64,000 bases of DNA. Source: an uncultured Alphaproteobacteria bacterium (lineage in GTDB: Bacteria > Pseudomonadota > Alphaproteobacteria > Rhizobiales > Beijerinckiaceae). The stretch spans positions 129,242 to 193,241 of the forward strand of contig CAVQWJ010000005.1 in assembly GCA_963717565.1 (NCBI GenBank). Reading direction: 5' to 3'. The first letter of the stretch is position 1; every line of letters begins with the position of its first letter. Positions 2,420 to 62,900 of the stretch are shown piece after piece. Both the position numbers and the translations under genes were made by a program. The notes beneath the pieces are model-generated. The model saw nothing but the letters and a program-made list of their open reading frames with translations, was not told the DNA's origin and ran no database searches.

Positions 2420-3694
2420 ATGTCGGAGATCCGCAAGGTGACGCAACTGCTCAAACGCTTCAGAGGCCTCGCGCACGACAGGCGGGGATCAATTGCAATC
2501 ATTTTCGGTCTGACGCTGATTCCGATGGCGACATTGGCCGGAGTGGCGGTCGACTACGCCAACGTCTCCCGGCTGAACGCCCGTCTGAAAGCCGCCGCCG
2601 ACGCGGCCGTGCTCTCCGCGGTTCGCGACTATGTATCCACGAGCAATCTGTCGATGGCGCAGAAAAAAGGCACGGACGTTTTCAACTCCGACCTCAAGAA
2701 AACCGCAGCTCTTCAGGACGCCACCATTAGTTTCAAGGATACGTCTTCGGGCGCGAACGTCAGTTTGACCGCCACTTACTCGGGCACAGTGAAAACCTGG
2801 TTTGGGGGCTTCATCCAAGTCGACAAGGTCCCTCTCAGCGGCTCGGCCAACGCGAGTTACGTGAAGCCGCGTTACAAGAACTTTTATTTCGTGGTCAACG
2901 CCTCGGAATCCATGGGCATCGCCGCGACTCAGGCTGACATCGACAAGCTGAAAACGCTGACGCCCGGCAGCTGCGCTCTCGCTTGCCATGTCCCGGAGAG
3001 TGGCGCCACAAAAAGCAACCAGCAGATTGCGCGTGAAAACAACGTTACGCTCAGACTCGACGTCATCAAGACGGCGATCAAAGACATTCTCACCCAGGTC
3101 GCCGCTGACCCGGTCAGCAGCGCCTACTTCAAGTTCGTCATCTATCCGTTTGCTTACTACCGCGGCGCGCTCGGCGCGCCCTCCTCGGATTTCTCAGGGC
3201 TGAAATCGCAGGTCGACGCCATCGATCTGTCCCACACGGTAAGTCCGGAAGGCTTCACCGATCACAAAAAGGCCCTCCAAAACCTGGCGGATACGATCGG
3301 CGCCGGTGGCGACGGCTCCACCGCCGCAAAAGCGCAAAACTTTATTTTCTTGATGACGGACGGCGTGGAAGACGTTGCAAATGCCGACAAGCGAGTCGAT
3401 ACGCCATATGCGTTCGATCCACTCAACGTCGGCTACATGGATTATACGGACTGCGACTATGTGAGAACGAAGACCCAAGGCACGGTCGGCGTGGTTTACA
3501 CGACCTATATTCCTCTTCCCGACTCCACCGCCTACAATGTCACCGTTGGTCAATTTGCGAGCAGTATCAAGCCGGCTCTGCAGAAATGCGCGGCCGCCAC
3601 TTATTACTACGAGGGGACCGACGGGGATCAGGTCGCGACAGCCATGAAGACCTTGTTCTCACAGGCCGCCTCCAGCGTGCGCCTGACCCAATAA
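2420..3694 (+). CDS. TadG/TadE-like pilin-type N-terminus with vWA-like domain
   Basis: RRGSIAIIFGLTLIPM...AVDY...LKAAADAAVL N-terminus; C-terminal FIFLMTDG. Confidence 0.75.
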   Translation: MSEIRKVTQLLKRFRGLAHDRRGSIAIIFGLTLIPMATLAGVAVDYANVSRLNARLKAAADAAVLSAVRDYVSTSNLSMAQKKGTDVFNSDLKKTAALQDATISFKDTSSGANVSLTATYSGTVKTWFGGFIQVDKVPLSGSANASYVKPRYKNFYFVVNASESMGIAATQADIDKLKTLTPGSCALACHVPESGATKSNQQIARENNVTLRLDVIKTAIKDILTQVAADPVSSAYFKFVIYPFAYYRGALGAPSSDFSGLKSQVDAIDLSHTVSPEGFTDHKKALQNLADTIGAGGDGSTAAKAQNFIFLMTDGVEDVANADKRVDTPYAFDPLNVGYMDYTDCDYVRTKTQGTVGVVYTTYIPLPDSTAYNVTVGQFASSIKPALQKCAAATYYYEGTDGDQVATAMKTLFSQAASSVRLTQ

Positions 3695-3866: not shown

Positions 3867-5435
<1,569 letters not shown>

Positions 5436-47105: not shown

Positions 47106-47866
47106 CCGTGCATTTCATCGGCGCCGGCCCCGGCGCCGCCGATCTTCTGACGCTCCGCGGGCGCGATCTCATCGCATCATCGCCTGTCTGTCTTTATGCG
47201 GGATCGCTCGTGCCCGCTGGCGTCCTGGCGCATTGTCCAATCGGCGCCCGCATCGTCGACACGGCGCCACTGTCGCTCGACGACATCATCGCGGAAATGA
47301 AGACCGCGCATGACGCGGGGCTCGACGTCGCGCGCCTGCATTCCGGCGATCTCTCCATCTGGAGCGCCGTCGGCGAACAAACGCGTCGACTGCGTGCGCT
47401 GGACATTCCCTATACGATGACGCCCGGCGTGCCGGCCTTTGCGGCCGCCGCCGCCGCGCTGAAACGCGAATTGACGCTGCCGGAAGTCGCGCAGTCTCTC
47501 GTCCTCACGCGCACGTCGGGCCGCGCCTCGGCCATGCCGGAGCGCGAGACGCTTGCGACTTTCGCGCAATCCGGCGCGACGCTCGCAATTCATCTGTCAA
47601 TTCACGTTCTCTCGCGGATCGTCGAGGAGCTCACTCCTTTCTATGGCGCCGACTGCCCCGTGGCTCTCGTCTATCGGGCGTCCTGGCCCGACAAGTCGAT
47701 CGTTCGCGGGACCCTTGCCGACATCGAGGCGCGCGCGGCCGATACGCCGATGGAGCGCACAGCGCTGATACTGGTCGGGCCAGCGCTCGCGGCGGAGGAC
47801 TTCCGCGAGAGCGCGCTTTACGACGCGGGCTATGATCGCCGTTTTCGTCCGCGAGGCGAGCTGTGA
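47102..47866 (+). CDS. cobM: Precorrin-4 C11-methyltransferase
   Basis: [25 protein letters not shown]. Confidence 0.94.
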
Positions 47867-49165
47867 TCGCACCGGGCCTGCTGATCGGGGCCGCGCGCTC
47901 GGGCTCCGGCAAGACTACGCTGGCGCTCGGACTGATGCGCGCGCTGGCGCGGCGCGGATTTCGAGTCGGCGCCGTGAAATGCGGGCCAGACTATATCGAT
48001 CCGGCGTTTCACGCGGCCGCCACCGGGCGCGACAGCCTCAATCTGGACTCCTGGGCCATGGAGTCTGGAATGATCGTCTCCCTGGCCGAGCAGGCGAGCA
48101 AGCGGCGCCGACATCATCATCGCCGAGGGCGCCATGGGTCTTTTTGACGGCGCCCCGGGCGGCGCGGCCGGAACCGGCGCCAGCGCGGATGTGGCGCGGC
48201 TTCTCGGCTGGCCGATCTTGCTCGCGCATGACGTTTCGGGTCAGGCGCAGACCGCAGCCGCGGTCATTCGCGGTCTTGCCAGCCATGACTCTCGCCTGAA
48301 AATCGCCGGCGTCGTCGCCAATCGCGTCGGCAGCGACCGACATCGGCGGCTGGTTTCGGAGGGCGTTTCGGAACTGGGTCTGCGTTTATTCGGGGCCCTG
48401 CCCCGCGATGACAGCCTGCAGCTCCCGGAGCGTCATCTGGGTCTGGTGCAGGCGGGAGAGACCGAAGGGCTCGACGCCCGGCTCGACGCCCTGGCGGCCT
48501 TCGTTGAAGCCCATGTGGACGTTCTGGCGATCGCACAGGCAGTCGAAGCGTCGGCTCCAAACGCCGCGTCGGCGCGCGCCCTGCCGCCGCCGGCGAAACG
48601 GATCGCCGTCGCCCGCGACGAGGCGTTTTCCTTCTTCTATCCGCATCTGGCGCAAAGTTGGGAGGCTGCGGGCGCTGCGCTCGTCTTCTTCTCGCCTCTG
48701 GCGGACGAGCCGCCCCCCGATGACTGCGATCTTTGCTGGCTGCCCGGCGGCTACCCGGAATTACATGCCGCGCGCTTGGCCCGCTCGCGGGCGTTCCTGG
48801 ACGGTCTGCGGAATTTCGCGAAGACGCGTCCCGTCCATGGCGAGTGCGGAGGCTACATGGCGCTCGGCAAATTCATTGTCGACGCAAATGGCGACGCCCA
48901 TGAAATGGCCGGGCTGCTGGACCTCGAAACCAGCTTCGCGAAACGAAAGCTGCATCTGGGATATCGGATTGGACGTCTGGCCGATCGCCACTGCCTCGGC
49001 GGCCCGGGGCAGCGGCTTCGCGGTCACGAATTCCATTACGCGACAGTCACGCGAGAATCAGGCGAACCCTTCGTCTTTGCCAGGGACGCCTATAGCGACA
49101 CCGAGACGCCAGCCGGGCTTCGTCGCGGCCTCGTCTCGGGGTCTTTCTTCCACGTAATAGGCTGA
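47863..49165 (+). CDS. cobB: Cobyrinate a,c-diamide synthase, apparent indel near 48100
   Basis: SGSGKTT and KCGPDYIDP in the first frame; [25 protein letters not shown] in the second. Confidence 0.9.
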
Positions 49166-49168
49166 CGC

Positions 49169-49260
49169 AAGAAAAGGGGCCGCCGGAAGACCAGCGGCCC
49201 AAGTCAAGGGAGGAAACGCCCAAGGAGGGCTACGGAGCGAGACAGGATCCCGCTACGTCT
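49169..49260 (-). ncRNA. mmgR: SuhB/MmgR (alpha-r8) family small RNA
   Basis: Minus strand ...CCCUCCUUGGGCGUUUCCUCCCUUGACUUGGGCCGC...GCGGCCCCUUUU: anti-SD core plus terminator as recalled for the SuhB family. Confidence 0.8.
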
Positions 49261-49264
49261 TTTT

Positions 49265-49293
49265 TTTATAATGCTGCATCGCACAAGTGTCAA
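49265..49293 (-). promoter_or_regulatory. Near-consensus sigma70 promoter of the sRNA
   Basis: TTGACA (49293-49288), 17-nt spacer, TATAAA (49270-49265); TTGTGCG in the spacer. Confidence 0.8.
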
Positions 49294-49395
49294 GGATTTT
49301 TGCTGCAGTGCAATTTACGGCCTTTTGGCAAAGCTCTCAGACGGTGAAGCAAAGGCGCCGAAGCCAAGCCCCGGGGCCGGCGGCCGGACCTGAAC

Positions 49396-50404
49396 TCATT
49401 TTGCCTGCAGAACATTGTTGACGAATGTTCCAGATTTCTTTTCCCCGTTCGGGAACACGATTGTCCCCTCCCCGTTCGCAACGCCATTGGTGAAATCGCC
49501 GCGATATGACACCCCGTCCGGGAAGGTGAAAACGCCCCTCCCATTCGGCACGCCGTCGCGAAATTCTCCTACATATTTTTTTCCGTCCGCAAATGTATAA
49601 ACTCCCTTCCCGATAATTCTGCCGTCCACGAACTCGCCGCTGTAGGACTCCTGATTAGCGATCGTGAAAGTGCCTTTGCCATGCTTTTTGCCGTTGCGAA
49701 ATTGCCCGACATATTTGCTGCCGTCCGCAAATTCCATCGTTCCCCTTCCGTTGGCTTCTCCCTTGTCCCACTGGCCCTCGTATCTGTCTCCCGAGGTCAA
49801 TGTTGCAGCGCCATAGCAATGGGACCAGGCGACATCGAGACTTTGCGGGCACTGTTGAAGACCGCCGATGGTTGGGCCTTCCGCCTTCGCAGTTTTTGTC
49901 TTGGACTGTGCAGATTTCTCCGTCTTTGAAGACGCCGGATAATTTTTTCCCATCCGGCAGTGTGATTGTCCCTTTTCCATTCGGCAGATCGTCGGCGAAC
50001 TGGCCCGTATAGACTTTACCGTCTGCCGTTGTCAGCGTCCCCTGCCCGCTGCGTTTGAAGTTTTTGAACCCCCCGGAATAGGTCTCGCCATCCGGATTGG
50101 TTACGACACCTTTGCCATTCGCCTCGCCGTCGCGAAATTCGCCAACGTATTTCTTCCCGTCCGAGAATAGGAGCGTGCCCTTGCCGTTAGGCCTGCCGTT
50201 ACGGAACTCCCCCGAGTAGGTGTCACCCGCTGGCGTCTTGATTTCAGCGAAACAGGGCTTCTTGTTATTCTCCACGTCGTCCGCCGTGCAATCTGGCGCC
50301 TTTCCTTTTCCTGCCGCTTGCGCGGGCCAGGCGGAAATCGCGACGAGCGCGCTTATACCCATCGTAAGCAGCAGCAGGGGTTTCTTATTTGAACGCGTTC
50401 TCAT
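49396..50404 (-). CDS. Secreted MORN-repeat protein, apparent indel near 49915
   Basis: Signal peptide, then YxGEFxxGxxxGKG repeats in two blocks in two frames. Confidence 0.85.
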
Positions 50405-50712
50405 CTTGGACGGCCTCACGATCACAATCTAAGTTCTAAACAGACCAGCTGACACGAATGCGTCGTGTCCGAGAAGCGACGCTTTTGAGGCGCCTCTTTG
50501 CCTTCAATGAAGCCGTCAGCATTCCTTCAACCCTTGCTCACTAGCCTTGGCGATCGGCCAAGACGGGAAACAGCGCACCGCATGCGTCTGACGAAAAGTG
50601 TGGCTAGCTTATCACCAAATCTCCGAATCTCCGGAATTCAGTATTGCGCCTTCCGGGGCCGGCGAGCATAGTAAAACGGCAATTCGGCGAGCCTGAGTTG
50701 GTGGAGGGTTAT

Positions 50713-50973
50713 ATGCGTTCGTTCAGCAGGGTGCTTTGTTTCGCGGGTTCTTTGTTTCTTGCGCTTTGCGCCGGCGCGGCTCCAGCAACAGCCCAACAAG
50801 ACACGGGAGCCGGAATGGGCATAGTCGTTCTTGAAGACATTATTGCCAAACAACGCAACCCGGAATGCGCGGCTCCGAAAACGCATTATGATCCTTGGAC
50901 CGGCGCAATCAGCTATACGTGCGAGAGCTTAGCCATTCCCGGCAAGGCGCGCCGTTTGTCCAAGCATAATTGA
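50713..50973 (+). CDS. Small secreted hypothetical protein with two Cys in the mature part
   Basis: GGAGGG RBS; signal peptide ending APATA; ECAAPKTHYDPWTGAISYTCE. Confidence 0.6.
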   Translation: MRSFSRVLCFAGSLFLALCAGAAPATAQQDTGAGMGIVVLEDIIAKQRNPECAAPKTHYDPWTGAISYTCESLAIPGKARRLSKHN

Positions 50974-51281
50974 AGTGCATCTGTTCCTGTCCAGATTAAC
51001 CTGCCGGAAAACTGTGCAATCGGGTCGTTTAAAGCATACGAGCGCGCCCTCATCCGGACCGCTTCTGAGATTCAGATCACAGCAGCTTGCACAGCAGCGG
51101 CTTTGAATTCTAGATGTGTTTCCAATCTGCTGATATCGAGAACTCCTGCTCTCGGCAAGATGACGCACAATTCGAACCGAGAGTTCCGTCGCGCCGATGC
51201 CGCGAGCCCGCTGCCGGCGCGTTTTCGTCCCCCTTTGAGAGCGACCGCGCCAAGCCAGAAGCAAGCGAACTCAGACTTCCG

Positions 51282-51308
51282 CGCCAGCGCACTTTTTATG
51301 CGCTGGCG
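51282..51308 (-). terminator. 10-bp hairpin ending the 51-55 kb cluster
   Basis: CGCCAGCGCA / TGCGCTGGCG, 13 nt after the stop at 51322. Confidence 0.55.
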
Positions 51309-51321
51309 GTGTGACACCTGA

Positions 51322-51707
51322 TCAATTAAGGGGCTGGATGATATTTGCCGTGGTGCCGTTTTTTATGGTCGGGTTGTTTGAATTCGTTGTGTTCATAGAC
51401 GCATTCGAGCTATCGACGATGCTGCCCACGGTGAAGGCTTGCTTATCCATCTGGACACCGCCGCCGTTCTGGAAGCCCACTCCTTTCATTTCATTCAAAC
51501 TGCCGTCAACGCTTCCGTTCTGAACGACGCCGACGATATTGTTAACGCCGATTTGCGTTACGGAGGAGTAGTTAGTGCCATAGGCGGAAGCCTGGTTCTG
51601 GTTCTGGTTTTGATTCTGTGGTTCTGATTTTGGTTGTTCTGATCTCCCGCAAAGGCGGAGCCAGAAGCAATGATGATCAGCAAGGCGGCGGCAGGTAACG
51701 TTTTCAT
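51322..51707 (-). CDS. Secreted QN-rich curlin-like protein, apparent indel near 51620
   Basis: AGGAG RBS. MKTLPAAALLIIIASGSAFA signal, then GDQNNQNQN; after the frame change QNQNQNQNQASAYGTNYSSVTQIGVNNIVGVVQNG...IIQPLN*. Confidence 0.7.
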
Positions 51708-51782
51708 GACAAGCTCCTGTGTTGTTCCGTGACTGAAGTTGTCGAACTTCTGTACCAGATCCACCTGATTCACAACTATAGG

Positions 51783-53388
51783 CTAGAACGCTTTCCTCAT
51801 ATATCCGAAGGCGGTCGGAAAGTCCGCGCGCACCGGAGGCGCGCTGCCGTTAGCGTAATACTGGCCACTGGCAAGCGTCCATGTATATCCGCCGTCGACG
51901 CCAAGAGCCCATCCGTCACCCATCCAATATTCGGCGTTGCCGCGCACCTGGGCGCCGCTCACCTTCGACTGGAACCCGAGAGGAAGCATTCCGAACACCC
52001 AATCCTAGGTCCTCTGGAGAAGAGCCCATATACGTCTTGAAGCCGGTAGCGGTCACTGCAGTCTTGAATACCGGCGTCCACAGATGCTCGTAGGAGCCAA
52101 GGATCGACCAACCGGACCCGCGGGACAAATTTCCGTAGGAGCCGCTGACATAGTCCAGCGCCATGTAGGGAACGCCGAGATAGGAGATCGCTCCCTGCGT
52201 CGCGCTCGCCGAAAGCATCGCCTTGCCATACATGTTGCCGCCGAGATCGCCGAGGAAATTGCTCCATTTCCAACGATATTCGCCGGCCAGCTGGGCGGCC
52301 CAGCCCCAGGTGGAGGTTTTCTGCGCAACCGGCCCCGTGAAAGTGAACGCCGCAATATCGCGGATCTGATGCATCGCGCCCGACATATGCAGCAGGAAGG
52401 ACGGCGTGCCGATGCGGGCCTGACCGACGAAGTCGGGATACTGGACGTAATTGTAGCGCGCCAAAACGCCGTCGGCATAGCGTCGCATATGCGGATCTTC
52501 CGCCGACACGCTCAGAGAGGCGCCGAGATTGTTGACCAGGCTCGGCAGAAGGCTGTCGATGCGCTTCGTATAGGAAACCGCAGGCGTGCTGACGTAGGAT
52601 TGGTAACCGGGGAAATAGGTGTAGCCCGTGCGGCTGAAGCTGAAAAGCGTGGGCTGTATGCCAACGCGCAGACCTTCGAACTGGACCCATGCCTGATCAG
52701 TGGCGCCGCGCCAGTAGTTTCCTTGGATCTGGTTCACAGTAATGCGGTTCTCGCCGAAATAGTTTGTTTCGGTTCTCGCGTAAATTCTGGCGTTCACATA
52801 GGCAGAAATGGTTCCGTAATCCGTGTTGCGGAAGGTCAGCAAATTGACCATGCTGTCCGTGCCGACGTAAGGGTGGTCCGTCTGAGCCGCCACATACGGA
52901 TTATTGTAGTAGTAAAGCATCGGCGCGGCGGCGACGAGAGCGGTTTTTCCTTGTGCGTCCAGGCGCATCGCAGGAAAACGTTGCGTCGTGAAAGCGACGT
53001 CGCTCTTCGCGCCGTCATATCCCAAAAAGCCGGTGAACTGACCATGGATGGCGGTACAGAAGCCCGTGTCGCCGATGGTGAAGAAATTGGTGTTGCCGTT
53101 CAGGTTACACGCCGACGCCAGCAAGGGCGGAGCCGGCGCGCGCGTGTAAGACTGCGCGACACTACGGACCTCCGCCTTTTTGGCGACCGGCTTCTTCTTC
53201 TGCTTCGACGCGGATCTCAGCTCTCTGAGCGCGCGCTCTGCTTCGGCGACCGAGGCGTCTGCGTCATTATTGAACGAGGCTGGCTGGGCGATCGCTCCAC
53301 CCGTTCCTGCGCTAATGGCGGCGAAAACGCCGGCCATTACGCATGCTGATTTCGGCGCCAGCCTCATAGCATTATACCTTTTCCCCAT
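51783..53388 (-). CDS. Alphaproteobacterial Omp2-type porin with N-terminal extension, apparent indel near 51995
   Basis: CNLNGNTNFFTIGDTGFC resembles the Omp2/RopA N-terminal two-Cys motif; alternating aromatic strands; second frame ends YMRKAF with terminal Phe. Alternative start at 53367. Confidence 0.7.
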
Positions 53389-53410
53389 CCGAATGGATAT
53401 TCAAAGCACA

Positions 53411-53983
53411 TTAGTGTTGACGACCAAAACCGCTCGTAACCGTCATGCCTCCAGAAGTATAGGTAACGAGATTCATGCCTCCTGTCTCGAACAGACTCAG
53501 GTAATTGCCTTCCGCGTCACGCCAGCTCTGAAAGACGGGACCTTTGGAAAAAGCCGTGTTGTCGCCGCCCACTCCGATCGAAGAAGAGGGCGAGGAAGGG
53601 GCGCCCCGACCGACGTGCGAATGCTGGACAACGCCTGCGGTGTTCGATTTGCCGACCTGGGTGAGGTCGGAACTGTTGTAAGACGCGTCCTGAGTGATAT
53701 AGGCGTTGTTGGCGCCGTTCGTGTTCACCTGCTGAACATTGGAAAAAGCCTTTATCCCGGATTGGTTCACAACGATGCTGTTTCGATCGTTGGCCGCCTG
53801 AACGCCGAAGAAGGAGTTCAGGACGCCATTCTGATTCACGCCCATCGAGGAATTATCGTTGCCGCCGACTACCGTCACGAGATAGTTGAAGAAGGAGTTC
53901 TGATTGAACGTCTGCGCGGACGCCGATCCAACAAAAGCAGCGATTAAGAATCGACTGGAGAAAGATCTGCCGGCGCATGACAA
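53411..53983 (-). CDS. Curlin-repeat (CsgB-like) secreted protein
   Basis: About six N-x5-Q-x-G-x2-N-like repeats (NSSMGVNQNGVLN, NSIVVNQSG, NNAYITQ, NSSDLTQVGKSN, NTAGVVQ). TTG start at 53983, or ATG 53978 with a 1-bp indel. Confidence 0.65.
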   Translation of the reverse strand: MSCAGRSFSSRFLIAAFVGSASAQTFNQNSFFNYLVTVVGGNDNSSMGVNQNGVLNSFFGVQAANDRNSIVVNQSGIKAFSNVQQVNTNGANNAYITQDASYNSSDLTQVGKSNTAGVVQHSHVGRGAPSSPSSSIGVGGDNTAFSKGPVFQSWRDAEGNYLSLFETGGMNLVTYTSGGMTVTSGFGRQH

Positions 53984-54083
53984 CCCCTAGGCTTGGAGAC
54001 TTTACCCTCGACATGAGAGCCGCTGCTTGAGTATCGGGCAAAAGCTCTTAATCCATCATAAAAGCCAAATGCTTGGTTTCTCA

Positions 54084-54353
54084 CTAACGTTGCCGGATGT
54101 AGTCGTAACAATGAAAATTGTACGGCGTGTTCGTTCCATCGGGAACGGGCTGAAGAACCCAGATATCATCCCTCAGGTAATCCTGGGCCTGCGTCTGTGC
54201 GAGATACCCGCCAAGACAGGCCGGGTCTTCCTGAGACGCAGCAGGCGCAGCCTGCGGCGCAATGCGTCTTGTTTTGCGAGCGAACGCTGGCGACGCAATG
54301 AAAAATCCAGCCGCAAACGCTGCGAGAACCAATACTGAAAACACACGCCTCAT
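54084..54353 (-). CDS. 89-aa secreted hypothetical protein with two Cys
   Basis: ATG 54353 after GGGGA; MRRVFSVLVLAAFAAGFFIASPAFA signal; PACLGG...NFHCYDY. Confidence 0.65.
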   Translation of the reverse strand: MRRVFSVLVLAAFAAGFFIASPAFARKTRRIAPQAAPAASQEDPACLGGYLAQTQAQDYLRDDIWVLQPVPDGTNTPYNFHCYDYIRQR

Positions 54354-54441
54354 TACTGGTCCCCGAAAGATGACGTTGAGCGTCCTGACCGACGGCGCGG
54401 AAGGGGTAAGGGCGGCGGCGACCGCCGCCCCTGAGAGATAT

Positions 54442-55473
54442 TTAGAACGGGAGGCCGAGGCCGCCGCCAGCACCACCGGGGGAGCCACCGGTGCCGCCAG
54501 CGCCGCCATTGCCGCCCGTAAGGGTAAGGTCAGCGGTGCCGATAGTGTTACCGTCCGAGCCCTTAATCGGATTGAGAGACCCGAGGACGAGAGCGTCCTT
54601 GATGCCCAGACCACCGGCGACGCCACCGTTGGTTGCGCCATTCGCGATCGAGGTCGTGGAGTTTTCGATCTTCCAGTTACCCGAATGTTCGGTATTCATT
54701 GAGACTGAGGCGCCGTTGCCGCCGTTGCCGCCATAGCCGCCGTTGCCGCCATAGCCGCCAGCGCCACCCGTGTTCGCAGAGTCAGTCTTGAGCTCGGGCT
54801 CATAGCTGACCTTGGCATCAACACTGGCCTTGAAATCGGCGCTCAGGCTGCCACCGCTGCCACCGCTGCCACCGCCGCCCCACTTGCCACCCTTGCCGCC
54901 CGTGCTGCTGGCGCTTGCAACGCCCAAGTCCGTAGGAACGCCGCCGAGTCCGGAGCTGGCAGACTGATCCTCGAGCTTGATGTCGTCAACCTTGGCAATC
55001 TGCTTAATGCGGACCTTCGCTTCGCCGCCGTTGCCGCCGTAGCCGCCATCGCCGCCCTTGCCGCCCTTACCGCCATTGCCAAAGTCAATGATATTGCCGA
55101 TCTGGAACGCCTTGCTCTCAATGTTCAAAGCCGCCCCGCCGTGATCGCCGCCACCCACGAGCGACGCCCCTTGCGGCCCGTCCGATCCTACTAGGGGAAT
55201 GCCTAAATGGTAATCGGTCACATTGCCCTGGAAGGTTTGAAGCTTGCCAAGGTCGTTAACGCTCTTGATATCGCCATCAGCGGTGACGCCCTGAACAAGG
55301 CCATTGATGTTATTGACGCCGATCTGGGTGTTTGAGCCGTAGTTGACGCCCTGAGCCGCCGACGACACGTTCACACCGCCGCCGAATGATGGGCGCGCCT
55401 GCTGAGCGTTCGCGACCGTGGCCGAAACGAGGCCAGCGGCCCCGATGATTGCGCAAAGAGAGACTTTTTTCAT
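54442..55473 (-). CDS. Secreted Gly-rich low-complexity protein
   Basis: Signal peptide ending ANA; four GGxGGx blocks separated by beta-prone spacers; N-terminal TQIGVNNI motif. Confidence 0.85.
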   Translation of the reverse strand: MKKVSLCAIIGAAGLVSATVANAQQARPSFGGGVNVSSAAQGVNYGSNTQIGVNNINGLVQGVTADGDIKSVNDLGKLQTFQGNVTDYHLGIPLVGSDGPQGASLVGGGDHGGAALNIESKAFQIGNIIDFGNGGKGGKGGDGGYGGNGGEAKVRIKQIAKVDDIKLEDQSASSGLGGVPTDLGVASASSTGGKGGKWGGGGSGGSGGSLSADFKASVDAKVSYEPELKTDSANTGGAGGYGGNGGYGGNGGNGASVSMNTEHSGNWKIENSTTSIANGATNGGVAGGLGIKDALVLGSLNPIKGSDGNTIGTADLTLTGGNGGAGGTGGSPGGAGGGLGLPF

Positions 55474-56049
55474 GGTCTAATCCTGTCGGTGTTGCAGTCT
55501 AGAGTAAACAGCAGAGACCGTTTTACTCAGGTCTCGAACGCGAGATTACATTCGGCTGGAAGAGAGTCCATGAGGATAACAACGCATCAATGCGTTTAGG
55601 CGCCGAGTGTGATTTTCCTGACACACCCAGGAAACTTGGCCATAAATATCTATTTCCCATTCTTCTAATAAGCGACCTTAATTTTTCTGACTCTGTCTTG
55701 GCTGGTGTGCTCCACTCAAATATCTGATAACAAATTGAATATTGAAGGCTCGTTGCGCTCGCGAAAGGAATAAGAAATACTCAGTTCAAGTATGTGTCTC
55801 CGCTTGTGGGATGAAATTGACGGGAAGCGCACAAACCGTCTAAAGTGAAGCTTCCAAGCAAATTTGGTGCGAGCAACTGCGTTTCTTCGGCAAAATCAAG
55901 CCAGCAAGAAGCCTTCTCGTGTTGCTTCTGGGGCCAGGGCTGCTCAACGCTCTGTGCTTCGGCTTGACTGAGAGGGGTAATTTTTCTCTTTTCAGTTTCG
56001 GAAGTCTCTAAATCTATGGCGAGCAACCCGAATCGGAGGTTGCCCCATT

Positions 56050-56239
56050 ATGACGATTGATCTTGAGGCGGCCCCTGCCAGAGCCCGATCGCGCAATTCG
56101 GTCAGCTTCTGGATGGGGACGTCGGTTTCGCGGGTTACGAGTTCATCGGCTCACTACGCAGCAGGCGGGCAACGACGGCCATTTTGCGCTGCACAGAGAA
56201 ACGCCAGCCTCCGGCGCTAACCTTCTCTTCCTTGGTCAT
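56050..56239 (-). pseudogene. Degenerate IS transposase OrfA-like HTH remnant
   Basis: MTKEEKVSAGGWRFSVQRKMAVVARLLRSEP, then in a shifted frame ELVTRETDVPIQKLTELRDRALAGAA; resembles IS3-type OrfA. Confidence 0.5.
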
Positions 56240-56496
56240 TTCCGTAGCTCCGGTTGCGGTTCAAATTACCGCAGCCGGTTGTCTAGCTAACCGTGCCGCA
56301 CCCCAATCACAACGCGATATGGTCGGTTGCGAGCATAAATCGTTCCCTCTGTCGAGTGCCGGACGTAAACTCCCCAAATGTGCCGATTGAAAATTCCCCA
56401 GTTTTCGTGACGCCCGGCCTTCCAGGGCATGCCCTGGAAGGCCGGGCGGCGCGCCGACTCACCGATGCTGCTCCCGTTGGCGGGAGGGAGGGCGCG

Positions 56497-57764
56497 GTGA
56501 TCAAACTCGGGGAAATTGTCATGATCCTGGAATTGCATCGTCAGGGTGTCTCTGTGTCCGCGATCGCGCGCCAGCTCGGAATCGACCGGAAGACGGTCCG
56601 CAAGCACATCGCCTCGGGGCTGGCGGCGCCCAGCTACAAGGCACGGCCGCCGCGCGAACGCGCGATTACAACTTTCGAGCCCTATCTGCGGGAGCGCCTC
56701 GGCGGCCTATCCGGCTCTGACCGGCCGCCGGCTATGGCGAGAGATCAAGGACCGCGGATATGCCGGCGGCTACACTGCGGTCACCGACTTCCTGCGCGAA
56801 CTTCGGCCGCCGCGCCCGAAAGGCTTCGAGGTGCGCTTCGAGACGCCGCCCGGCGAACAGGCGCAGGTCGACTTCGCCCGCTTCGATGTCGAGTTCCTCG
56901 ACGAGCCCGGCGCCAAGCGGATCGTCTGGCTCTTTTCCATGGTCCTGGGCCATTCCCGCTTCATCTGGGCGCGCTTCGTCCTGCACCAGGATATGCAGAG
57001 CGTCCTGCGCTGCCATATGGCCGCCTTCGAGGCGCTCGGCGGCGTCCCGCGCGAGATCCTCTACGATCGCATGAAGACCGCCGTCATCGGCGAAGACCCG
57101 GACGGCCTCGTCGTCTACAATCGCGCGCTGCTCGATCTGGCGCGCCATTACGGCTTTCAGCCGCGCGCCTGCAAGCCCTACCGCGCCAAAACGAAGGGCA
57201 AGGTCGAGCGGCCCTTCCGCTACATCCGGGAAGATTTTTTCCTCGGCGGCGCCTTCCGCAATCTCGATGACCTGAACGCCCAGCTCCGGACCTGGCTCGA
57301 TACGGTCGCCAATCCGAGGGTCCACGCCACGACCAGGCGCGTCGTCAATGAGGCCTTCGCCGAAGAGAAGGCGTCGCTCCAGCCGTTGCCGTCCACGCCC
57401 TATCAGGCGGTGCTTCGGCTCGAGCGGCGCGCCTCGCATGAAGGCATGGTCAGCGTCGGCGGCAATCTCTACAGCGTCCCGGACACCACCCGGCGGCGCG
57501 TCCTCGACGTCCATGTCTTCGCCGACGCCATCCGCATCTTCGAGGACGGCGCATTGATCGCCGCCCATGCGCCGCTCGAAGGCCGCGGCGAAAAACGCCT
57601 CGATCCGGCGCATCGCAAAATGCCGTCGCAAGCGCAGCGTCGCCGGCCGCCCGACGCATCGCCGCCCCTCGTGCTGCGCGCCGGCGATCACGCCGCGAGA
57701 CGCCCGCTGGCCTTCTACGACGCCGTGGGCCGTCGCCTGGCCATGCAGGGAGGGCTCGCGATGA
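56497..57764 (+). CDS. istA: IS21 transposase IstA, apparent indels near 56701 and 57750
   Basis: N-terminal HTH; RFETPPGEQAQVDF, YDRMKTAV, KTKGKVER. Confidence 0.88.
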
Positions 57765-58627
57765 ATGCGACGCCCTCCGCCATCATCGACCGCGTCAAAC
57801 GCAATCTCGTCGGCCTGAGGATGCCGCGCGCCCTCGAAATCCTCGACGTCACCCTGCGCGGCATCGAGCGCGGCGAGACCACCGCGCTCGACGCGCTCGA
57901 CATTCTGCTCACCGAGGAGCTGACGCTGCGCGAGAACCGCCGCGTCAGGATGGCGCTTCAGATGGCGCGCCTGTCCGCCGTCAAGACGCTCGCCGGCTTC
58001 GACTTCGCCTTCCAGCCCTCGCTCGACAAGAGCCGCGTCATGGCGCTGGCCGAATTGCAGTTCATCGATCGCGCCGAAGCCGTCCATCTCATCGGACCGC
58101 CCGGCACGGGGAAAACCCATCTCAGCCTGGCGCTCGGCGTCGAAGCGGTCAAAGCCGGCCGCAGCGTCTACTTCGCCTCCCTCGCCGACATCATCGCGAC
58201 GCTCGCCAGGGCCGAACGCGAAGGGACGCTTCGGGAGAAGATCCGCTACTTCTGCCGCTTCTCGCTGCTGATCGTCGACGAGATCGGCTATCTGCCCGTC
58301 ACGCCCGGCGGCGGCAATCTGTTCTTCCAGCTCGTCAACGCCCGCTACGAAAAAGGCGCCATGATCCTCACCTCGAACCGCGGCTTCGCCGAATGGGGCG
58401 AGATCTTCGGCGATCCCGTCGTCGCCACCGCGCTGCTCGACCGCCTCCTGCACCACGCCGTCGTCTTCCAGATCGAAGGCTCAAGCTATCGGCTCCGCGA
58501 GCACGCCGATCTGCTGCCCGAACATGTTCGCATGAAAGCGAGCATCCAGCCCGCGCCAATCCCGCCGACGCTCCGGCGCCGCGGACGGCCGCCAAAAAAC
58601 GGAGGCGCCGATCAAGACATCGGCTGA
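57761..58627 (+). CDS. istB: IS21 helper ATPase IstB
   Basis: FDFAFQP, GPPGTGKTHL, IVDEIGY, LTSNRGF, LDRLLHH. Confidence 0.93.
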   Translation: MNATPSAIIDRVKRNLVGLRMPRALEILDVTLRGIERGETTALDALDILLTEELTLRENRRVRMALQMARLSAVKTLAGFDFAFQPSLDKSRVMALAELQFIDRAEAVHLIGPPGTGKTHLSLALGVEAVKAGRSVYFASLADIIATLARAEREGTLREKIRYFCRFSLLIVDEIGYLPVTPGGGNLFFQLVNARYEKGAMILTSNRGFAEWGEIFGDPVVATALLDRLLHHAVVFQIEGSSYRLREHADLLPEHVRMKASIQPAPIPPTLRRRGRPPKNGGADQDIG

Positions 58628-59460: not shown

Positions 59461-60929
59461 TCACACATCCTCAGTTCTTGCCGAGGAGAATGTCACGGAA
59501 CGGGTGATCTGGATTATGCGCGTCCCAGCATGACCTTTCCGTTCGAAGGAGATCTCAATTCCGACCGCGCGAAGAAAGGTCTGCGCCCGGCGCAATCGAC
59601 CGGCGAGCGCTCGAGAGGAGTTGGGCCACTCTTTCGAGCTTTTGCTGCGCCCGTCCCGCAGACGAAGAGTGCGTCCTGAAGCTCACTGGCGGTTCCCCTC
59701 CAAGTCTCGCGCATCGATATCAAACCGCAGACTGCGCTCGCAACAGCATCTGCGGCGATGACATCCGCAATAGCCTCCTGACGATTTTGATCATATGCTT
59801 CCAGAAACCGACCTCTTGGCCAGAACGCTGTTTCGCAGGCGGTTCCCCAATGGGCGAAATCGGCCATCCGTGGCGGGTTGGACAATCGAATTTCTGGAAA
59901 ACGCTTCAAACCCATGGCCACAGCGTCGAGCAAAGCGCCGAGAATGCGTGGCCGCGCGGCCTCAAACTCCGCCCAAAATTCCCCCTCTGCGCGTCGTCGG
60001 TCGGTTGCGATTGGGCCGAGGGTCAAGAAGATCGAACGATCTGCAAGGTCCGGCTGAGCCACTATGTCCTCAATCCCGTTTAGGATTATGGGCCGAGCCG
60101 CGTCGAACAATGTCTCATCATCGTCGGTGCGAAGCCGTCGGGTCGCGAAGCCGCCACCACTCGCAAGGCGGCAGAGTGTGTCAGAAATGCCGTGCGGCAG
60201 TCGTGAAACATTGTCGAACACCAGAACGTGGGCGTTATGTGCTGCAATGAAAAGATCCCGATCATCTCGCGGCAACGCGCGTATTGGCGCAGTGCTAGGA
60301 TCGGTAAGCTGTCGTGAAATTTTCGACAGCGTCGATTTAGACGATCCCTGCTCGCCAGATAAAGCCAAGACTGGATAAGGGCCACAGTCACGGTAGCTTC
60401 CTAGCAGCCATGTTACCAACAACACAAAATCGTCGTCGGATTGCAAATTCACAAAGGGCCGCAAGGCCGTTATTGAGCCGCCAGCAATAGGCTCCGGCAA
60501 TGGAGCCATGCCAAATGCGCGGCGAAACCGCACTGGCGGACGGCTGATGATCCTCCAACCGTTCGCAGTAACCTCGATTGCTCGCCACGTCGAGTCACCC
60601 AGGTCGACGTAAAGTCGATCACTTTCACCACCAACACGAACAGAGACGCTACGCTCAGGCGCATCAAATTGCGCGCAAGCTTCGATAGCGTCGAGCGCGG
60701 CCGTCATGGCACTAGAGGAAGGTGTGCCGCCTGTTTTATTAAACCACCAGTGGCCAAGCAAACGCTTAAAAGATTTCGAGCGAACGCGCCATGTCTCGCG
60801 ATGGCCATTAATATAGATGTCAGCATAGGCGACCCCGTCAGGTGTATGGAAAAGTTCGGCCATGCTCGCCAAATCGATCAACTTACCGGCCTGAGACGTT
60901 GCGCCAGCAGAGGAGAAGTCGGAGCTCAT
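59461..60929 (-). CDS. Mobile-element P-loop ATPase (helicase/primase-associated type), apparent indel near 59630
   Basis: Walker A GEQGSSKS, LVFDNVS, RPIILNGI, PRMADF; second frame continues WPNSSRALAGRLRRAQ to TGA at 59461. Confidence 0.7.
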
Positions 60930-61578
60930 TGTAACCTCACAATTACGCGCGAGCGGTCATAGACGACAATTGATGTCGCCAGCCAATCCGCAGCTTTTCG
61001 ATCGCAATGTAAGGGAAATGTTTCGGACGGCACCTCGTCGACTGCCGACAAGTTATGAAATTGGCACGAACCTAAACATATTTTAGCGCGCGGCCTCTTG
61101 CAATTCAAGAGATCTCCGCATCTTCGATAGCCGCCTCTCACCCGCGTAACGGAGCCATCGATCGACAAGGCATTATTGGGCAGTCCTAACAAACGTGGTG
61201 GAACAGCCAACTCGGCTCCAAGATCATCCCCGCGGCGGCAGCCGCCTTCAAATTTGTCTTTGAAAAGCCACTTGATGTTTTCTTAACGCGTGATATAAAT
61301 AGTGCAAGTGTAGATTGCCGGCAGCTGCTTTGTGCAGCTATTATGCCGATCCCCCTTCCCAAGACCGAGTTTATCCGATCACAGCCGTTCGGGGGCGCTG
61401 AGTGGGGGTGATTGCGTGAAGCGGCGTGTCTCGGTCGTCAGAGGAGCAGCTCACAAGGCGTTACGCGTCTGTGAAGTAGCCTTTCCAGGCGGAGCAACCT
61501 ACCAGCCGCTATCTCAAGGTCTTGCCTCTCCCTCAGGTCTTCCGGCCTATCCGCTCAACTGCGAGGGACGAGAAGAAG

Positions 61579-62900
61579 ATGGACGTAATTCATAACATAC
61601 CTCAATGGCAAACTGTCCCAATCGATTCGATTAAGCAATATCCCGGACGGGCGCGCGTGCACAAAAAGACGCAGCAGTCGAAGCTGGAGAAGGTGGTCGG
61701 GCACTACGGGCAAGTAGTGCCCATTGTCATTGATAGCAAAAATGAAATTATCGATGGACATGCCGTTTGGGAGGCCATGAAGGCGCTGGGACACGATGAA
61801 ATTGCTGTTGTTGTAGTGGCCAACTACTCCGAGCCGGAGATCAAGGCGCTCCGGCTCGCGCTTAATCGGATCGCCAGCGACGCGGGGTGGGACAATGAAG
61901 TGCTTCACGCGGACTTTGAGCTCTTCATTTCGGTTGGTTTCGACTTGGAATTGACGGGCTTCGACGCCGTCGAAATCGACGGGCTTCTCGACGTCGACAT
62001 CCAAAAGCTCAATGTCGTCGAGGAAGAGGCGGAAATCCCACCCCCACAGCAGTTTGCCATTTCGGCGGCCGGGGACATTTGGAATTGTGGGCCTCATCGG
62101 ATTGGCTGTGGCGACGCCTGCGATCAGTCCTTCGTCGACAAGCTGCTCGCTGAAAAAAAGGCAGCGCTTTGTTTTGTTGACCCTCCATATAACGTCCCAA
62201 TTTCCGGTTTCGTCACGGGCAAGGGCCGCGCAAAACATCGTGAGTTTGTTGCGGGGGCCGGCGAGCTGAGCGCAGAGCAATTCGCCGCGCTCCTCCAAAA
62301 GTCATTGAGCATTCTAAAACAATCGGCGAGTCCCTCCGCGTTGATTTACGCGTGTATGGATTGGCGGCACATCTATGAGCTTCTCGTCGCCGGCCGTCAG
62401 AACGAGCTGGAGCTCGTCAACTTATGCGTCTGGGCGAAGACGAATGCCGGCATGGGATCTTTTTATCGCTCCCAACATGAGTTGATCTGCTGTTCAAGGC
62501 CGGGAACGCCAAGCATTCGAACAACGTCGAGCTCGGGTGCCATGGGCGAAACCGGTCAAATCTTGGACGTACCGGGGGATGAATTCATTCGGGAGTGGCC
62601 GCGATCAGCTTCTCTCCTCCCACCCGACGGTAAAGCCCGTCCTCCTGATTGCGGACGCGATCCGCGATGTCACCAAACGGGGAGACCTTGTCCTCGACAC
62701 TTTCCTGGGGTCGGGATCGACCATTATGGCCGCAGAGGAGACCGGCCGCGTCGGCGTCGGGATCGACCTTGACCCCATTTATGTCGACGTCGCCGTGCGC
62801 CGCTGGCAGGCGCAGACCCGGCGGGACGCAATCCACGCCGAGACGGCGAACTCTTCGACGAACGCGCCAAGCGCCTGGCGTCCCCAGAGAGGAGGGCTGA
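61579..62900 (+). CDS. ParB-like N-terminus plus N6/N4 DNA methyltransferase, frameshifted
   Basis: VPIVID...IIDGH ParB motif; DPPYN; second frame HPTVKP and VLDTFLGSGST. Confidence 0.85.

Follow-up and report, generated by a model that had tools for sequence, protein, structure and literature searches.

A curlin-type gene cluster with a Porin_2 barrel in Methylocystis and related wetland bacteria: a candidate surface-fibre module

How might curlin-type proteins be handled at the outer membrane by a bacterium whose curlin locus carries no CsgG? Many Alphaproteobacteria possess curlin subunits only (with CsgH) and lack CsgG, which implies other biogenesis pathways (PMC3521004), and according to Sleutel et al. 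CsgG is missing from about 2% of the genomes that carry CsgA (PMC10192328). The question is raised again by a cluster of five genes, g1 to g5, on a 64,000-nucleotide stretch (the window) of contig CAVQWJ010000005.1 from an uncultured alphaproteobacterium of the Beijerinckiaceae (assembly GCA_963717565.1, positions 129,242 to 193,241). A preliminary description, made from the letters alone, had proposed that these genes encode an amyloid or fibre system in which a porin takes the place of CsgG or FapF. The five co-oriented genes are indeed present on the minus strand (51322 to 55473); one product is a curlin homologue by profile search, another a divergent porin, and the genes occur together in every related locus scanned. 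The answer proposed here, to which a probability of about 0.45 is given, is that the genes form a self-contained envelope operon whose products assemble a curli-like fibre or coat at the cell surface, with a porin-family protein as platform.

The curlin-repeat protein, the barrel and their companions

The g3 gene (53411–53983, minus strand, 190 amino acids) was delimited from its open reading frame (ORF) and by profile search. Comparison of the g3 family profile with the PDB retrieved the curlin-repeat protein 8C50 (E 6e-35) and Escherichia coli CsgA (8ENQ, E 1e-7, residues 21–123), and CsgA was also recovered by hhalign (92%). The NCBIfam models of CsgB and CsgA match g3 weakly, CsgB better than CsgA with both NCBIfam and phmmer. 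As judged from these profiles g3 is a genuine curlin homologue, which bears out the curlin-repeat protein named in the preliminary description, although the window copy itself stays under the Pfam threshold (Curlin_rpt, PF07012; 18.4 bits with a cut-off of 20.7); the Methylocystis rosea orthologue exceeds it (26.3 bits). The protein comprises about four to five curlin repeats of the pattern S-x5-Q-x-G-x2-N-x-A/F-x3-Q (residues ~24–121), a Pro/Ser/Gly linker and a C-terminal domain of about 45 residues. AlphaFold2 (AF2) predicts a strand-turn-strand solenoid over residues 24–121 (predicted local distance difference test, pLDDT, 79–89), a disordered linker and a three-strand C-terminal region. 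The latter (GYLSLF.T.G.S....T..G.T...SFGRxH) is the best-conserved part of the protein over all clades, with the window copy ending in SGFGRQH; this FGRxH domain has no known relative and is specific to the family. FapC occurs in the Foldseek listing for g3 only at E 2.2. The family is rare: a search of 1.84 billion cluster representatives gave 10 at E <= 1e-3.

The g4 gene (51783–53388, minus strand; main ORF 51916–53388), defined by Pfam and by alignment, encodes the sole outer-membrane protein of the module. It had been described as a beta-barrel porin of a family other than those of curli and Fap, and this holds. Pfam assigns it to Porin_2 (PF02530, cut-off 22 bits) with 24.1 bits for the window ORF, 27.0 bits for P0003, an intact homologue 78% identical to window g4, and 42.8 bits for P0011 from clade B (one of three clades described below). 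In the AF2 model of P0003 a helix and a disordered linker precede a beta-barrel, and Foldseek places DcaP (6EUS, E 1e-11) at the top, followed by Omp38, PorB and OmpF (range E 1e-11 to 1e-7), with Omp32 also found; the best 50 of the 177 significant matches are all general porins, with neither FapF nor CsgG among them. The model thereby points to a fold of the 16-strand general porin type. The identity of g4 as FapF or CsgG was ruled out by Pfam together with the fold search. The N-terminal helix (VAEAERALRELR) follows the signal peptide and is itself followed by a Lys/Pro linker, and a Cys-x16-Cys loop (CNLNGNTNFFTIGDTGFC) marks the start of the barrel, where a Cys-x(14–17)-Cys loop is found in all clades. 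Intact homologues end in ...RKAF, with a C-terminal aromatic residue; this end is out of frame in the window. The g4 proteins are a divergent and rare subfamily of Porin_2, always found within the operon and larger than typical porins.

The first gene, g1 (54442–55473, minus strand, 343 amino acids), encodes a secreted protein, likely the major structural product, that consists of a signal peptide (MKKVSLCAIIGAAGLVSATVANA), one curlin-type repeat (SNTQIGVNNINGLVQGV), a further motif (AFQIGNIIDFGNGG), a variable body rich in Gly, Asn and Ser, and a conserved C-terminal part (GGVAGGL). The window protein matches its family hidden Markov model (HMM) at E 7e-120, and no Pfam, NCBIfam or PDB match to g1 was found. 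Its middle is hypervariable among orthologues and that of M. rosea is not Gly-rich, so the label of Gly-rich protein given earlier is not a conserved trait. The last gene, g5 (51322–51707, minus strand, ~125 amino acids, from ORF and HMM), encodes a secreted protein in which a signal peptide and a (QN)n run accompany one curlin-type repeat (YGTNYSSVTQIGVNNIVGVVQNGS) and a motif (DKQAFTVGSIVDS); the window copy matches its family HMM at E 7e-40 over model positions 22–119. The N-terminal modules of g1 and g5 are homologous (hhalign 98.9%), and the curlin-type repeat of this module aligns with the last repeat of g3 (hhalign 93.8%, E 1.6e-7). By this alignment the N-terminus of g1 has a short paralogue in g5, which recasts the QN-rich protein of the preliminary description, its QN run being present, as a curlin-type relative of g1. 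The g5 family forms 24 clusters among 5.8 billion proteins, and the M. hirsuta member bears the name 'Curlin' in UniProt.

Both genes vary between loci. The (CAGAAC)n run that encodes the QN repeat of g5 (window 51590–51640) ranges from none or about three up to ten units, and comparison of g5 from loci L001, L003, L004 and L013 shows that L003 has GDGGNKAQAGG in place of the repeat. In Methylocystis sp. H62 (L012:5137–5550) about 410 bp within g1, from directly after the ATG to near codon 140, are inverted with respect to M. rosea SV97, so that the operon's most highly expressed gene is disrupted; the borders show no clear inverted repeats, and either a genuine off-switch or mutation or an assembly error could explain the inversion.

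Between g1 and g3 lies g2 (54084–54353, minus strand, from its ORF), a secreted protein of 89 amino acids with an invariant C-L-G-G-x-L ... D-Y-L ... C pattern and a basic C-terminus. C46, G48, G49, Y59, L60 and C82 are invariant in the alignment, so that both cysteines of the small two-Cys protein announced earlier are conserved. The g2 family has no Pfam or NCBIfam relative, and its profile found none in the PDB at E < 1, where structures of both CsgC and CsgH are present. Assignment of g2 as CsgC, CsgH or CsgE was rejected for lack of any sequence relation (phmmer with CsgC gave only noise, and the profile has no PDB relative). Signal peptides had been claimed for all five products; those of g1, g2, g4 and g5 are confirmed as Sec-type, whereas that of g3 is readable in the window only across a frameshift.

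Co-occurrence, export genes and expression

A lack of co-occurrence elsewhere had been named as a result that would refute the idea. Strict co-occurrence was found instead. The porin (g4) alignment was scanned against 185,579 species genomes and gave 19 loci, 10 of them in Methylocystis (~60% identity) and nine in Roseiarcus and other Hyphomicrobiales bog genomes (~43%). When one HMM per gene family was searched over all six frames of 27 loci, the same gene order was recovered in all 27, and it was found as well in two clade C loci and in the SC2 strain loci. Three clades, all within the Hyphomicrobiales, can be distinguished. Clade A (Methylocystis and the window) shows g1-g2-g3-g4-g5 in every locus, as far as the contig reaches. 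Clade B (Roseiarcus-like bog bacteria) shows gB1-g2-g3-g4 in 10 of 10 loci. Clade C (peat metagenomes, L029/L030:4524–8375) shows g1 (212 amino acids), g2 (140), g3 (161), g4 (495) and g5 (124) between mgtC and the DPBB_1/rsmA/pdxA genes; its g4 also lacks the N-terminal helix. A g1 is the first gene in every locus of clades A and C by the family HMMs, and g2 is matched in all loci of the three clades, the invariant core being g2-g3-g4. The clade B first gene, gB1, was considered as a distant homologue of g1 and g5 and rejected, since only the signal peptides align.

Such an arrangement is far beyond chance. The flanks vary among locus groups and transposases lie alongside, and the module therefore travels as a unit. 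It is restricted to a few wetland soil bacteria, mainly methane-eating Methylocystis, and among cultured strains it is present in Methylocystis sp. SC2, M. rosea, M. hirsuta, M. suflitae and strains H4A, H62 and L43, as well as in a metagenome-assembled genome of M. silviterrae; apart from the UniProt name of the M. hirsuta g5, its genes are annotated everywhere only as hypothetical proteins and a 'porin'. A link to the spinae of M. echinoides, which are amyloid-like tubular appendages (PMC3517982), was considered and found unsupported: there is no M. echinoides genome among the 19 genome matches.

Is a known export machinery encoded nearby? The searches for csg and fap genes covered the 64-kb window and the loci of relatives. 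Against six-frame ORFs of the window and of loci L001–L008, the E. coli CsgG query reached no better than E 2.2 in phmmer, and the queries CsgE and CsgF (E >= 0.7) as well as CsgC gave noise. CsgG (PF03783), CsgE and CsgF are also absent from the Pfam labels around the loci of eleven relatives, and no Peptidase_C39 (FapD-type) was found among the called genes within 6–8 kb of the cluster in these eleven loci. The lack of csgE, csgF, csgG and a C39 peptidase, first noticed at this locus, thus extends to the whole window and to the surroundings of eleven relatives, and CsgC/CsgH and FapF are likewise missing there. Comparison of the five products with Pfam and NCBIfam showed no chaperone-usher genes (Ig-fold chaperone, usher of ~800 amino acids) in the module, and no description of a curlin-porin operon was found in the literature searched.

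Evidence that the operon is used in nature comes from RNA. Contigs of four metatranscriptomes were placed on the M. rosea SV97 locus; X6, X13 and X12 are from sediment, and X11, whose RNA label is uncertain, entered only the fine-scale runs. The k-mer depth over g1 reaches 1.3e5 in X6 (directly upstream 0–30), 1.9e4 in X13, 4.6e3 in X12 and 5.4e3 in X11 (directly upstream 0 in these three). Coverage starts at ~5105–5112 of the locus, some 25–30 nucleotides before the g1 ATG, then drops 20- to 50-fold over the g1 stop codon and the next intergenic region, and the lower level persists through g2–g4 (a 20- to 50-fold excess of g1 RNA over these genes in the three sediment metatranscriptomes), with g5 depth up again in two runs. 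Depth that changes by two to three orders of magnitude at sharp edges points to a strong promoter before g1, and the drop after g1 indicates partial termination or differential stability at that point. The pattern suggests a major structural subunit gene followed by assembly genes, with g1 as the major product; the subunit roles proposed earlier have to be changed on this count, transcript levels favouring g1 over the curlin-repeat protein g3. Relatives of the window's own g1 and g5 are found in soil metatranscriptomes. The g1 transcript of M. rosea SV97 (L023:5105–5960) is represented by many micro-variant contigs at k-mer depths of 1e4–1e5, and g1 may rank with the most abundant mRNAs of Methylocystis in these sediment samples. 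At the protein level, the porin BN69_1226, probably the SC2 orthologue of g4 (a mapping inferred from accession numbering), was detected in the published pure-culture proteome of strain SC2 and falls about 5-fold at high ammonium; it is the only one of the five in the SC2 table of regulated proteins, where tags of g1, g2, g3 and g5 were not found.

Layout, neighbourhood and state of the window copy

Two hairpins accompany the operon in the window. The terminal one, foreseen in the preliminary description as closing the cluster, lies 14 nucleotides past the g5 stop codon (51282–51308, minus strand): by letters 51299–51308 pair with 51282–51291 in a perfect 10-bp stem with a 7-nucleotide loop, and the predicted fold adds one flanking pair (11 bp, 5-nucleotide loop; -26.7 kcal/mol, z = -4.9). 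In the window it has no T-run after the stem; at the same place after g5 the M. rosea locus carries a canonical hairpin with a U-tract. The other is a predicted G+C-rich hairpin of 11 bp after g1 (54408–54432, minus strand), with a strong counterpart similarly placed 3' of g1 in L003 (z = -4.2). Its position coincides with the fall in RNA depth in the M. rosea orthologue, and it is a candidate attenuator or mRNA-stabilising stem. A search of Rfam over 50900–56400 gave no match at E <= 1, so no riboswitch or known RNA was recognised in or upstream of the operon, and consensus scans for a sigma-70 promoter and for an intrinsic terminator did no better than with shuffled sequences.

Directly beyond g5, a secreted MORN-repeat protein (330–405 amino acids, paired cysteines) is encoded on either strand in all clade A loci (14 of them, e.g. 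L001:10240–11238) and is absent from clade B; in the window it occupies 49396–50425 on the minus strand as two ORFs separated by a frameshift (Pfam MORN, E 1e-24 to 1e-36). It could belong to the module as a sixth component, or its position could reflect mere Methylocystis synteny. A small secreted two-Cys ORF adjoins the cluster at 50713–50973 (plus strand); it has no Pfam match, and phmmer found homologues beside the cluster after g5 in L004 and L005 (E 5e-34) and before g1 in L003 (E 2e-16). On the other side an insertion sequence (IS) of the IS21 family (istA, istB; 56293–58627, plus strand; Pfam HTH_29, rve, Mu-transpos_C_2 and IstB_IS21) borders the cluster 0.8 kb upstream of g1. Compared with the syntenic contig L003:6249–11481, the block of g1–g5 and the MORN gene (window 49396–55473) is inverted relative to the cobalamin operon, and the g1 side of this block is the one that carries IS21 in the window. 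Beyond the IS21 element, the ORFs 59514–60929 (minus strand, 471 amino acids) and 61522–62772 (plus strand, 416 amino acids) have no Pfam match at E <= 1e-5; near the other end of the window the ORF 2420–3694 (plus strand) carries a TadE/G-like Flp-pilus assembly domain, and a Tad pilus locus may start the window.

Three of the five cluster genes (g3, g4 and g5) are interrupted in the window assembly, a fact overlooked when all five were first located. The real ATG of g3 lies at 53978 (MRRQIFLQS..., with a Shine-Dalgarno sequence in front), out of frame with the body of the gene, which places a frameshift in the signal-peptide region. In g4 the frame changes by one base near 51995–52000, and alignment shows that the last ~70 residues, including ...YMRKAF, are in ORF 51783–51998; in g5 the frame changes within the QN repeat, near 51611–51625. 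Both g1 and g2 are intact. Frameshifts are found also in the neighbours, namely cobB (split at ~48134), the MORN gene (~49950) and IS21 istA/istB, where as assembled the helix-turn-helix lies in another frame and istA and istB are fused. They are concentrated locally, over window 47863–58627; outside this segment the large genes cobN, bamA and dxr of the window are unbroken. The G+C content of the cluster region is 55–60%, as against 65–70% in the adjacent cobalamin genes. In soil metatranscriptome contigs that are ~97% identical, an 8-nucleotide deletion at 51611 puts g5 back in frame. A local assembly error is probably the cause, because the housekeeping gene cobB is frameshifted too, and real decay of an IS-flanked segment is possibly so.

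Proposed role, alternatives and comparison with known systems

How might the five products then work together? In a self-contained fibre- or coat-building operon, all of them would reach the periplasm by Sec. There the dedicated 16-strand-type barrel of g4 would provide the outer-membrane passage, an anchoring site, or both, and the short curlin solenoid of g3 would be held at this barrel by its C-terminal FGRxH domain, presenting an open solenoid edge as a CsgB-like nucleator or anchor. The curlin-type repeats of g1 and g5 may dock on, or be templated by, g3, with g1 as the bulk surface material and g5 as a minor subunit or cap, and g2, as a small disulfide-bonded periplasmic protein, would keep the subunits export-competent or gate the barrel. 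The strict synteny across several genomic contexts, the curlin homology of g3, the repeat shared by g1, g5 and the last g3 repeat, the porin fold of g4, the lack of csg and fap genes in the window and in the flanks of relatives, the RNA pattern with hairpins after g1 and g5, and the detection of a porin that is probably the SC2 orthologue of g4 argue for such a scheme; fibre formation, the individual protein roles and passage through the porin are what we infer. The amyloid-export interpretation first offered for this locus is plausible and apparently undescribed: its curlin subunit, its barrel outside the CsgG and FapF families, the co-occurrence of the genes and their transcription in nature all stand, and its assignment of roles was revised.

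Several points weigh against this scheme. The window copies of g3, g4 and g5 are frameshifted, and the fibres, their amyloid nature and their surface location are all putative. The N-terminal helix of g4 is confined to clade A, the AF2 barrel of P0003 is only moderately confident (pLDDT 69), and the CsgA fibril 8ENQ, although the top Foldseek match of g3, is matched only at E 0.14 with a template modelling (TM) score < 0.2. The RNA depths, taken from assembled contigs, are a rough measure; gB1 is not detectably related to g1 or g5, so the 'major subunit' is not universal; and a csgG or another secretion system could be encoded elsewhere in these genomes, the searches having covered loci only. 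We know of no general 16-strand porin that secretes proteins.

Another explanation, which we consider unlikely, is that the porin is a general or substrate-specific solute channel and the small proteins are its periplasmic or outer-membrane accessories (for example plug or modulator, stabiliser or cell-wall tether), with no extracellular fibre. The fold of g4, which matches the diffusion porins DcaP, OmpF, Omp32 and PorB, its membership in Pfam Porin_2 and the ~5-fold fall of its probable SC2 orthologue at high ammonium, as for a regulated porin, all agree with a channel, and protein secretion through a porin fold is without precedent known to us. Against a channel, three of the five products share stackable curlin-type repeats, and g1 RNA at 20 to 50 times the level of the porin's is odd for a channel accessory; the curlin repeats known from other systems belong to extracellular amyloid subunits (PMC10192328). 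A fibre or coat might also be made but exported through machinery encoded at another site, for instance a remote channel of the CsgG/HfaB type or type II secretion, with the porin only anchoring or nucleating it. The narrow, constricted pores normal in porins would suit this division of labour, as would the scope of the CsgG searches (the window and the loci of relatives), and the C-terminal domain of g3, with its strong conservation, is as compatible with an anchoring contact as with an export signal. The module, on the other hand, moves as a unit between contexts, beside IS elements and without any other export gene, and, as weak evidence, the tables of Dueholm et al. (2012) list no csg genes for Methylocystis or Methylosinus (PMC3521004). 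We rate export from elsewhere as unlikely.

A further reading concerns the window alone: whatever the family does, this copy may be the non-functional remnant of a decaying, IS-flanked island. The broken g3, g4, g5, MORN and IS21 genes, the lower G+C content with the adjoining IS21 and the unbroken cobN, bamA and dxr elsewhere in the window speak for decay; the frameshift in the adjacent housekeeping gene cobB, which points to a local assembly error, the in-frame g5 of the ~97% identical RNA contigs and the unbroken g1 and g2 speak against it, and it remains a possible but doubtful explanation. Returning to the porin-platform operon, its most far-reaching form would be a third Gram-negative route of functional-amyloid export and assembly: a dedicated barrel of the porin family would stand in for CsgG or FapF, a novel C-terminal domain would anchor a CsgB-like curlin protein, and the product would rank among the surface proteins most abundantly transcribed by wetland Methylocystis. 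This we put forward only tentatively, as less probable than the general scheme. If the scheme holds, curlin-type amyloid subunits would be handled by a wholly different family of outer-membrane proteins, more ways would be known by which Gram-negatives pass aggregation-prone proteins over the outer membrane, and the 'alternative pathway' of Alphaproteobacteria without CsgG, a question open since 2012, would have a concrete candidate. The high transcription of g1 in situ suggests an abundant, unrecognised surface or matrix component of sediment Methylocystis, in bacteria that form a major biological methane sink, with possible consequences for aggregation, attachment, and resistance to desiccation and predation in wetlands. 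With only five genes, present in cultured strains (SC2, M. rosea and M. hirsuta), the hypothesis is directly testable.

How does the module compare with systems already described? Like curli, it has true curlin repeats and a predicted beta-solenoid (in g3), several paralogous repeat proteins in one operon, Sec export, a small extra periplasmic protein and one subunit gene expressed far above the others. Unlike curli, the locus has no CsgG, CsgE, CsgF or CsgC/CsgH, its only outer-membrane protein being the Porin_2 barrel; g3 has, in addition, a conserved domain at its C-terminus, g1 and g5 combine a single curlin-type repeat with unrelated sequence, and g2 is not similar to CsgC, CsgH or CsgE. 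The orphan curlin clusters of Alphaproteobacteria (csgA/csgB with csgH, as in Bradyrhizobium and in Agrobacterium atu4766–4768) likewise have no neighbouring csgG, but they include CsgH and are not described as having a porin, whereas the cluster studied here has no CsgH-like gene and is always accompanied by the porin and the two-Cys protein. With the Fap system of Pseudomonas (FapA–F) it shares repeat subunits and a dedicated beta-barrel in one operon. FapF is a trimeric barrel with an N-terminal coiled coil, of which the helix and flexible linker of clade A g4 are reminiscent. However, neither sequence nor fold comparison matched a product to FapF or FapC, a FapD-type C39 peptidase is missing at the locus, the g4 barrel is predicted to be of the 16-strand porin type as opposed to 12 strands, and the N-terminal helix is missing in clades B and C.

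The Porin_2 porins of Hyphomicrobiales (Brucella Omp2a/b, Rhizobium RopA/RopB) share with g4 the family PF02530, the general fold and, in intact homologues, the terminal aromatic residue, whereas g4 is set apart by its divergence (24–43 bits), its rarity, its larger size and its constant place in this operon; for RopA and RopB, amyloid formation by the porins themselves has been reported (PMC6920782), a separate phenomenon. The holdfast anchor of Caulobacter, HfaA/HfaB/HfaD (summarised in bioRxiv 10.64898/2026.01.20.700542, where it is written 'HfsABD'), is likewise a module for surface attachment in an alphaproteobacterium and includes a curlin-like protein, HfaA, but its HfaB is a CsgG homologue, and no such protein is encoded at the locus described here. 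Taken with these comparisons, the module is a curlin system with a different outer-membrane partner.

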